Shown: piece after piece, positions 43,124-44,222 of the stretch
How positions within the stretch are numbered: the first letter of the stretch is position 1
Layout of the letters: every line of letters starts with the position of its first letter
DNA from: a virus
Taxonomy: Duplodnaviria; Caudoviricetes
Virus record (IMG/VR): IMGVR_UViG_3300028048_000089
Location: 32,001-96,000 of that record
Length of the DNA stretch: 64,000 bases
Strand: one strand, 5' to 3'
The notes under the pieces: generated by a model
What the model was told of the DNA's origin: nothing
The model's database searches: none
What the model saw: the letters and a program-made list of their open reading frames with translations, nothing else
Program-made: the position numbers and the translations under genes

Positions 43124-44222
43124 AAAGACTCCGAAGAGTCTTTATTCATAGATGTTACTACTGTGTATCGTTCGTTTGCACAGGGTTAGATTTCTCTAAC
43201 AAGGCAGGTAACTAGTCACGCTTTACATAGGGTTTATGATTCTCACTACCTAATACGTTTGACATTCGCTCATTCTCATCAGTGACTCGTGCAGGATTTT
43301 ATAACTATTGATAATAGTTCCCTGGACCCATGTCAGCTGGAACCTGCTTTTCTAAAAGTATTTTTCACCTAATTAGATGGTTTCTGTTTCTTATGTTTCT
43401 GTTGTTACCGTCTCCTACTGCTTTGGTAGATTGCTTCAGGTCAGTAGTCAACCTTTTGTTTAGAGGTCCGCTAACTCTAAACATAGAAAGGAGGTAAGGT
43501 TTATATTAACTCTATTGCTAGAGTAATATACAAAGTTATTGACAATTTTTACTCTCCTCAGCAGTGTCTTAACAGTTATCTGGTAAGAGTAGGATTGCTC
43601 ATGAGCCTCCGGCCTAATCGCGGTAGATATTTAATCATGAGTGTACTTGTTCCGATACATCATCACTGAATGTAGATTGTGAACCTCTCGGCAAACATTT
43701 TATTTATGTTTAATTTGAAGGCTCAACCCTTCTTGCAGGAGTAAATTCCTGGAGTTCCCTGGCTTTAATTTCTCTATACCATTCTACGCCATCTCTGGTA
43801 GGCACCAGCACATCTCCCTCATCTAAGGAAGATACAGGAAACGAACCCGTTATTTTTTCATAGATGGTTAATTACCTATTGCTAATGGTTATAAGCCAAA
43901 CATTAGTGTAGTGACTGAAACTATACTACTTTGTTCTAGATTTTACTCTAGTTACGGAGTTTAACCGCTTTTCTAATGCCAATAGGCTGAGGTAGTCCAC
44001 TGACTTGCTTAATGCAAACAACATTCAGTACTGGGTGGTGGAACTATTTTTTTTAGTTAAGAATATTCACTTGTGTACTCTCCGCAACTTACGGGCTCTG
44101 TCTATTCTGCAGAAGACATTCCACGATTAGGAGTTTATGACGGTGTAGTAGATTGCGACTCTGTATCTTATATACCTCATATTTCAAAGGACTCAAAGAC
44201 CCCGTCCATTCTTTCTTAACTA
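43124..44222 (-). ncRNA. ~1.07-kb highly structured non-coding RNA (family unknown; GOLLD-like size and context)
   Basis: own promoter at 44227-44256; ORF-free; GC-richer than coding DNA; GNRA and cUUCGg hairpins; long-range helices 44121-44131/43613-43623 and 44021-44029/43665-43673. Confidence 0.6.

Follow-up and report, generated by a model that had tools for sequence, protein, structure and literature searches.

What is encoded by the largest stretch without open reading frames (ORFs) in the 115-kb IMG/VR virus record IMGVR_UViG_3300028048_000089? This gap of 2.37 kb lies in the window analyzed here, a 64-kb stretch corresponding to bases 32001-96000 of the record (~70% complete), between an ORF ending at 44992 and an ORF starting at 42622. 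An original prediction, made from the sequence alone, had read positions 43124-44222 of the window as a minus-strand structured RNA of ~1.07 kb with long-range helices, possibly an undescribed giant non-coding RNA. The finding is real but has to be redrawn, and in this sense it is partly confirmed. The minus strand of the gap encodes a structured RNA whose family is unclassified and has so far been found in uncultured phages; the full reading, in which this RNA would also act in trans and be tied to translation, has a probability of about 0.6. It is a modular RNA locus of ~0.9 to 1.7 kb built around a core of ~340 nt, which resembles GOLLD in habit and layout and fails the tests with the GOLLD and ROOL models. 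A protein product is not apparent: no frame in the gap exceeds 60 codons, all six frames contain 9-35 of each stop codon, and reassigning any single stop, as in an alternative genetic code, gives a longest frame of 132 codons in 2.4 kb. The GC content of the gap rises to 38-39%, against ~30% in the record.

Homologues were reached through neighboring proteins. A portal-like protein with 39% identity led to a 161-kb phage contig (G001). Elsewhere in its genome, an array of 16 tRNA genes is followed downstream by 1.8 kb free of ORFs, and this gap aligned with window positions 44630-43719 as collinear blocks of 77-100% identity, including 34 identical bases. A 20-mer from the 34-base block was found in five IMG/VR contigs and 19 metagenome stretches, and a second search, with an 18-mer of another block and a degenerate 20-mer, added the divergent members L042, L043, and L045. 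The family thus collected from IMG/VR and metagenome contigs comprises about 20 distinct sequences; the core is present in 17 distinct main-type homologues and in the divergent L019, L042, L043, and L045. Two pattern scans (the 20-mer and a combined pattern) of 185,579 prokaryote species genomes gave no match, and no family member was found in 50,697 GenBank phage records. In relatives with enough flanking sequence, the RNA shares its orientation with tRNA genes and is located within or next to an array of them; in L042 it begins two bases past the CCA end of a tRNA.

Comparison of these sequences shows a core that, as read from the alignments, consists of five single-stranded blocks, nearly invariant, and of the helices that join them, P1, Pa, Pb, Pc, Pd, Pe, and Pf (Table 1). 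In a MAFFT alignment of 17 sequences (A2), 97.2% of the cells of P1, Pa, Pb, and Pd were paired, compared with 25-43% when the partner strand was slid; eight pairs changed on both sides, and the covariation score was 0.227 versus 0.081, reached by 0 of 500 shuffles. Pe, examined in 19 sequences, had 98.7% of its cells paired, with 26 cells altered on both sides and a score of 0.93 versus 0.26 when shuffled. Over all covariation tests, slid controls left 25-50% of the cells paired. An anchored alignment gave 275 canonical cells out of 306 at 18 variable positions, while shuffles reached a mean of 176 and a maximum of 198; RNAalifold run on it recovered P1, Pa, Pb, and Pe only. Covarying positions contained 13 G-U cells versus three A-C cells, an excess that identifies the minus strand as the RNA strand and outweighs the caveat, attached to the original prediction, that some stems pair in the plus sense only. 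The folding energy of the core was modestly better than that of shuffles (z = -2.72 for the minus strand, -1.63 for the plus strand); thermodynamics by itself gives modest support for structure. On this point the original prediction is supported: the minus strand encodes a structured non-coding RNA that is apparently undescribed and that no Rfam family matches.

The helices vary in ways that differ from one to another. P1 shows no variation in the main type; L043 has a covarying version (UUCCCAC/GUGGAA), and in L045 a shift of the bulge preserves the helix. The Pa region has its minimal form in the window (16 nt) and reaches 35-130 nt in relatives. In Pb, both sides have changed in four of seven pairs, with 97% of cells paired, and it is the sole helix listed in the original prediction (CCUAUUG/CAAUAGG) that gains comparative support, through compensatory changes in relatives. 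A hairpin in the Pb insert, UGG-CUUAUAA-CCA in the window, becomes CAG-CUUAUAA-CUG in L030 and L034. Pc is paired in 53 of 68 cells at variable positions, with several double changes. The long-range Pf takes the forms CCC/GGG (L024, L035), CAC/GUG (L031), UUC/GAA (L020), CUUAAU/AUUAAG (L042), and AUCGA/UCGAU (L045). Four of the helices, Pa, Pb, Pc, and Pd, have loops with species-specific expansions. L042 and L043 are without the whole Pb-C3-Pc arm, block C3 being absent, which reduces the universal core to P1, Pa, C4, Pd, and Pe, ~190 nt.

Table 1. Features of the RNA locus and its downstream flank (window coordinates)
Feature	Position	Strand	Description
Predicted sigma-70-like promoter	44845..44872	minus	TTGCAA-16-TATAAT; consensus scan; ahead of 5' domain
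5' domain (probable)	44512..44838	minus	Conserved U block 44636-44512; outside the span of the original prediction
U1 hairpin	44631-44627 / 44620-44616	minus	In U block
H-type pseudoknot of U block	44625-44621 / 44590-44586	minus	U1 loop CCAAG with CUUGG 25 nt downstream; noted in 44636-44571
U2 hairpin	44612-44609 / 44602-44599	minus	In U block
Variable linker	44052..44511	minus	Contains promoter-like site 44256-44227 and the "5' domain" of the original prediction (44222-44054)
Second promoter-like site	44256-44227	minus	10/12 sigma-70-like; consensus scan
Conserved 3' core	43712..44051	minus	~340 nt here; ~290-390 nt in main-type relatives
Block C1	44018..44044	minus	GUUCCACCACCCAGUACUGAAUGUUGU; first 7 nt are the P1 5' strand; contains self-complementary CAGUACUG
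P1	44044-44038 / 44000-43995	minus	3' strand GUGGAC (43995..44000) in C2; closes C1 on C2
Pa hairpin	44017-44014 / 44008-44005	minus	Compensatory changes at 5 positions
Block C2	44001-43984	minus	Holds P1 3' strand and Pb 5' strand
Pf	43991-43989 / 43774-43772	minus	Long-range, 3 bp: CUC (in C2) / GAG; compensatory sets by eye
Pb	43986-43980 / 43881-43875	minus	CCUAUUG/CAAUAGG; encloses 98-nt variable insert
Block C3	43867..43877	minus	AGGUAAUUAAC; kept in 17/17 main-type sequences, one substitution in L040
Pc	43867-43864 / 43782-43779	minus	Variable insert; weakest helix
Block C4	43749..43766	minus	AAAGCCAGGGAACUCCAG; last three nt start Pd
Pd	43751-43748 / 43739-43736	minus	Fourth pair alternates G-C, A-U, G-U
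Pe hairpin	43732-43728 / 43721-43717	minus	Loop GGUUGAGC; conserved GGUUGWGC in block RGGUUGWGCY
Lineage-specific 3' extension	43124..43711	minus	~590 nt; sequence present; no homologue aligns
tRNA-Met (CAU)	42743..42818	minus	ARAGORN; Rfam tRNA 39.4 bits; same strand as RNA
Terminator-like hairpin	42738-42711	minus	3' of tRNA-Met; terminator scan; closes gap

Block C1 was identical in 16 of 17 main-type sequences. In divergent members, found through C4, it reads UGGUACUG or GGUACU, forms in which the self-pairing is kept by wobbles. Past the P1 strand, C1 has no conserved intramolecular partner, and no above-chance complement to it was found in any homologue except the window. Two pairings that would have occupied it were discarded: GUUCC/GGAAC between C1 and C4 is broken in L039 and L020, and an alternative GGGG/CCC pairing was unsupported across the aligned blocks.

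Upstream of the core, the relatives suggest that 44838-44512 is the 5' domain of the same RNA in this family. Its U block shares 79-83% identity with the window over 118-129 nt in L029, L031, L037, and L038, and shorter blocks of 86-91% identity occur in L012 and L028. In these seven sequences, window included, all 14 pairs were standard in 100% of cells, versus 27-42% when slid, and five pairs change on both sides; two pairs of the pseudoknot are double-changed in L031 (GUAAG/CUUAC). The part of the topology resolved here comprises seven core helices and this pseudoknot. The distance from U block to C1 ranges from about 7 to 490 nt (a linker of 0-490 nt), being 100-490 nt in L037, L029, L012, L028, and the window; the 5' end originally placed at 44222 falls inside the linker. 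L038 has TTGACA-17-TATAAT at the place equivalent to the predicted promoter of the window, ~330 nt upstream of C1, and the compact members L020, L022, L029, and L033/L038 carry an intrinsic terminator within a few bases of Pe, the next gene having its own promoter. The order of motifs GGA(Y)UACCUCA, helix, U(A)AUUAA is found in the U block (44590-44512) and again in the core, from C2 through Pb to C3 (43997-43866). A degenerate copy of the GGA(Y)UACCUCA-helix module was also observed in the linkers of L012 and L028 (UUACCUCCAAG ... GAGGGAAC ... GGUAAUUAAG). This recurring order suggests internal duplication of a module.

The presence of two promoter-like sites raises the doubtful, though not negligible, alternative of two or more adjacent independent RNAs, an upstream one of ~330-570 nt transcribed from 44872-44845 and a second one starting near 44220 from 44256-44227. 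The latter site is similar to the stretch immediately before C1 in L040 (86% over 35 nt), a member without the 5' domain, and since the U block is absent from L020, L022, L024, L035, and L040, the core can stand alone. Joining of the U block to C1 by 7-13 nt in L031 and L038, with no promoter or terminator between them, argues for a single RNA instead; besides, the terminator scan found no terminator-like site between 44512 and 44256 in the window, and promoter-like sites in the AT-rich gap are about twice as frequent as in shuffles (18 vs 9.2 expected). A single ~1.07-kb fold, running from 44222 to 43124 and held by a 10-bp closure, an 11-bp pairing spanning ~500 nt as a pseudoknot, and a 9-bp link to C1, is unlikely, even though every listed sequence element is found where it had been placed, the minimum-free-energy fold uses the 11-bp and the 9-10-bp pairings, and the 977 nt from 43124 to 44100 fold with z = -3.2 (20 shuffles). 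Stems of this kind are common by chance: 33 of 60 dinucleotide shuffles contained a stem of 11 bp or more with no more than one G-U, as in 44131-44121/43623-43613, and the 1,099 nt hold four stems of at least 10 bp versus a shuffle mean of 2.3. The 10-bp closure (44222-44213/44063-44054) exists, lies in the lineage-specific linker, and is likewise matched by shuffles. The 5' strand of the 11-bp pairing is in the linker and that of the 9-bp pairing (44029-44021/43673-43665) inside C1, while both 3' partners fall in the 3' extension, in sequence that no homologue shares; the partner of C1 was found in this phage alone. Folding better than shuffles holds for the core, as noted above, and fails for the supposed 5' domain at 44222-44054 (z = -0.52). 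Compact relatives terminate after the core and presumably function without the regions of linker and 3' extension; what conservation delimits is the ~340-nt core, which the 1.07-kb span had mixed with flanking lineage-specific sequence.

Whether the family is one already described was addressed with the 4,227 models of Rfam 15, by cmscan both at gathering thresholds and with E values up to 10. For the window and the relatives L012, L018-L020, L031, L037, L038, L042, and L043, only tRNAs were found at gathering thresholds, and the rest was sub-threshold noise. The stretch 42500-45100 gave tRNA and noise at E up to 10, with no group I or II intron, RNase P, tmRNA, HEARO, or OLE; the cmscan check called for with the original prediction, which also named GOLLD and ROOL, returned none of the named families on the window. 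These long, multi-helix RNAs, as well as raiA, share with the new RNA covarying helices and conserved unpaired nucleotides, yet it has no match to any of them in Rfam 15 at E up to 10. HEARO and group II introns have an associated protein gene, and none of such kind accompanies the new RNA; P4/CR motifs, a tag ORF, and an acceptor/T-arm are likewise absent.

GOLLD and ROOL are the closest in habit. GOLLD, a large phage RNA often sited in or near tRNA islands, combines a 3' region conserved throughout with an internal linker and a 5' region of lower conservation, and its env-38 representative lies downstream of a tRNA-Met (PMC12286853); ROOL is an ornate RNA of phages and prophages, often near tRNAs, with ~10 highly conserved nucleotides (PMC5737381). 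The new family shares with GOLLD the phage tRNA arrays, the conserved 3' domain, and the variable 5' domain and linker, a likeness of organization and not of homology. The total length of the compact L038 (~660 nt) is also near the 581-nt average of ROOL. On the other hand, comparison by eye with the env-38 sequence showed no relation to its conserved blocks and helices, and the blocks hold ~80 near-invariant nucleotides, mostly unpaired, as opposed to the ~10 of ROOL. GOLLD occurs in Lactobacillales and Mycobacterium genomes and ROOL in bacterial genomes of three phyla, while the new family was found in no prophage or bacterial genome by the two pattern scans; GOLLD multimers are known, whereas a multimer of the new family is a proposal. 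Such a shared habit beside tRNA islands and analogous layout (PMC12286853, PMC5737381) might be expected of a highly divergent GOLLD or ROOL beyond the reach of Rfam covariance models, an explanation made improbable by the silence of both models at the locus. ROOL (RF03087, gathering 99.1 bits) was silent over the 115-kb record at E up to 10, in a run without a positive control in which the control genomes were also blank, and none in separate cmscan runs on the window and relatives. With GOLLD (RF02032, gathering 150 bits), G000, G001, G003, and G005 were blank at E up to 10, and the sole match, of 9 bits (E 0.41) in G006, is 68 kb away from the locus, leaving none at the locus in five phage genomes. 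The window and eight relatives, compact forms among them, were equally silent by cmscan at E up to 10. The invariant motifs of the family are absent from published ROOL and GOLLD alignments and construct sequences, a comparison limited by the gapped alignment text, and do not occur in the literature searched. Fragments of the new family could be among the 10,006 candidate viral RNAs that were catalogued from IMG/VR in 2023 (PMC10690425).

A cis element, that is, a leader or spacer controlling tRNA-Met or neighbor genes, or an origin or packaging site acting at the DNA level, is very unlikely. Compact members have their own promoter and terminator, and the promoter of the next gene is separate, against which stands the position of the RNA in the window, co-oriented with and upstream of tRNA-Met, together with arrangements of CCUCC, GGAGG, and terminators in some members that recall attenuators. 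Downstream genes differ between loci, and the downstream ORFs tested for a conserved protein partner belonged to no informative family (one weak primase-like PHROG match). A protein could bind the invariant block of 27 bp at the DNA level; the strand-specific excess of G-U and the covariation of helices favor RNA over DNA.

Beyond the core, the 3' extension of the window would be on the same transcript. It contains the CUCAUGA stem, GNRA hairpins, a 9-bp hairpin (43483-43457), ACCUCCUUUCUA (43495-43484), and a terminal cUUCGg hairpin (43143-43124). The motif CCUCCUUUCUA (window 43495-43484) lies on the RNA strand in the five longest 3' extensions, those of the window, L012, L024, L035, and L037. 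L024 has it as AUCACCUCCUUUCUA, which would match the 3' end of Bacillus subtilis 16S rRNA. In this subset of members, CCUCCUUUCUA is probably a copy of the Bacillota 16S rRNA 3' tail, i.e. the anti-Shine-Dalgarno sequence. The likeness is confined to an 11-15-nt motif, and Rfam small subunit rRNA models have no match on the window RNA, which is consequently not rRNA-derived overall. Wider resemblances to 16S rRNA, namely GUGGACUACC, complementary to the 790 region, and GGGGAAC and AGGUAA, which are like h45, were not significant; the idea of a broader rRNA mimic was rejected because of the silent small subunit models and the use of GUGGAC in P1. On the other strand of L012, the reverse complement of CCUCCUUUCUA is followed, at the spacing of a ribosome-binding site, by an ATG and a hydrophobic ORF of ~30 codons.

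If the gap encodes a trans-acting RNA of this family, transcription would proceed from sigma-70-type promoters, at 44872-44845 and perhaps at 44256-44227, together with the downstream tRNA-Met. A terminator, or the enzymes that process tRNA, could then free the RNA, which would act in trans during infection. The invariant unpaired blocks would serve as contact surfaces rather than helices, and the self-complementary CAGUACUG in C1 makes homo-oligomerization plausible by analogy with GOLLD, ROOL, and OLE. These three form RNA-only homo-oligomers, and GOLLD was reported to bind ribosomes (PMC12286853). Linkage to tRNA genes and the mimic of the 16S tail suggest that host translation may be affected. 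The hypothesis proposed is that of a self-associating scaffold that might engage the translation apparatus and in which the 16S-tail mimic would be an accessory module. A bolder and rather speculative version would make the family a third class of giant ornate phage RNA, in which the blocks build an assembly, catalytic, or ribosome-binding site, CAGUACUG drives the formation of homo-oligomers, and the GGAYUACCUC-helix-UAAUUAA units and the 16S mimic capture translation components or Shine-Dalgarno-bearing mRNAs.

To our knowledge, no large phage RNA of such kind other than GOLLD and ROOL has so far been described. Their structures by cryo-electron microscopy revealed unprecedented RNA-only cages. 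A third, sequence-unrelated family with a similar habit would, if true, indicate a recurrent phage strategy and not two curiosities. Minimal members of ~190 nt, with long conserved blocks, should ease structure determination and the finding of partners, and the 16S 3'-tail mimic in a subset offers a concrete, testable link to translation.

Several points weigh against the reading as a trans-acting RNA family tied to translation. Homologues were collected with exact-match patterns that fixed 20 of the 27 nt of C1, so the invariance of this block is partly by construction, and the breadth of the family may exceed the set found in this way. The covariation statistics were computed over mutually related sequences, ignoring kinship. 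Pc is weak, and Pf, with 3 bp and a flexible register, is supportive and not rigorous. Consensus scans are the basis for the promoters, the ends, and the choice between one and two transcripts. Compact members lack the 16S-tail motif, and in L012 it is the reverse complement of the good ribosome-binding site and ATG of the other strand. The argument from CAGUACUG rests on three variant sequences, and oligomerization and interaction with ribosomes or tRNA are proposals drawn from analogy. Finally, this phage has two tRNAs in 115 kb, and its RNA is placed among head genes, with no tRNA array.

Both of these tRNA genes are tRNA-Met (CAU), at G000 C1:9015-9091 and at window 42743-42818. All long ORFs of the low-GC record are on the minus strand, and they include genes for a tail-sheath protein, a head-tail adaptor, a helicase, and anaerobic NrdD. 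Among GenBank phages, tblastn with the portal-like protein found no relatives and blastn with the locus matched the tRNA alone. The 374-aa neighbor protein, used as a search handle, had no relatives. Through the adaptor protein, L001 was reached; it has small ORFs where the RNA would be and was set aside. A tRNA-shaped candidate at 43000-43123 on the minus strand received no call from ARAGORN or Rfam and folded as shuffles do (z = -0.11).

Some weaker matches to known RNAs were noted in the relatives. In L019, a 214-kb phage with a divergent member, the abiF motif (RF03085) scored 36.8 bits against a threshold of 37 at L019:3024-3060, 16 nt upstream of C1. Sub-threshold matches to YrlA, a Y RNA-like family, of 34-38 bits and through its tRNA-like module, occurred at L018:5712-5780 and L042:2538-2607, in tRNA arrays bearing the RNA. 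Drum RNA (RF02958) matched the 5' domain of a single relative weakly (L031:253-357; 27 bits versus a threshold of 43). The scan for variants of C1 also returned L044 and L046-L050, which were discarded as an unrelated repeated element. This element is GC-richer and longer than 400 nt, and it occurs three times in the 88-kb viral contig IMGVR_UViG_3300028549_001530 (L047, L048, and L050) and in three further contigs (L044, L046, and L049); its chance overlap with C1 is TTCCACCACCTTGTACTGAA.

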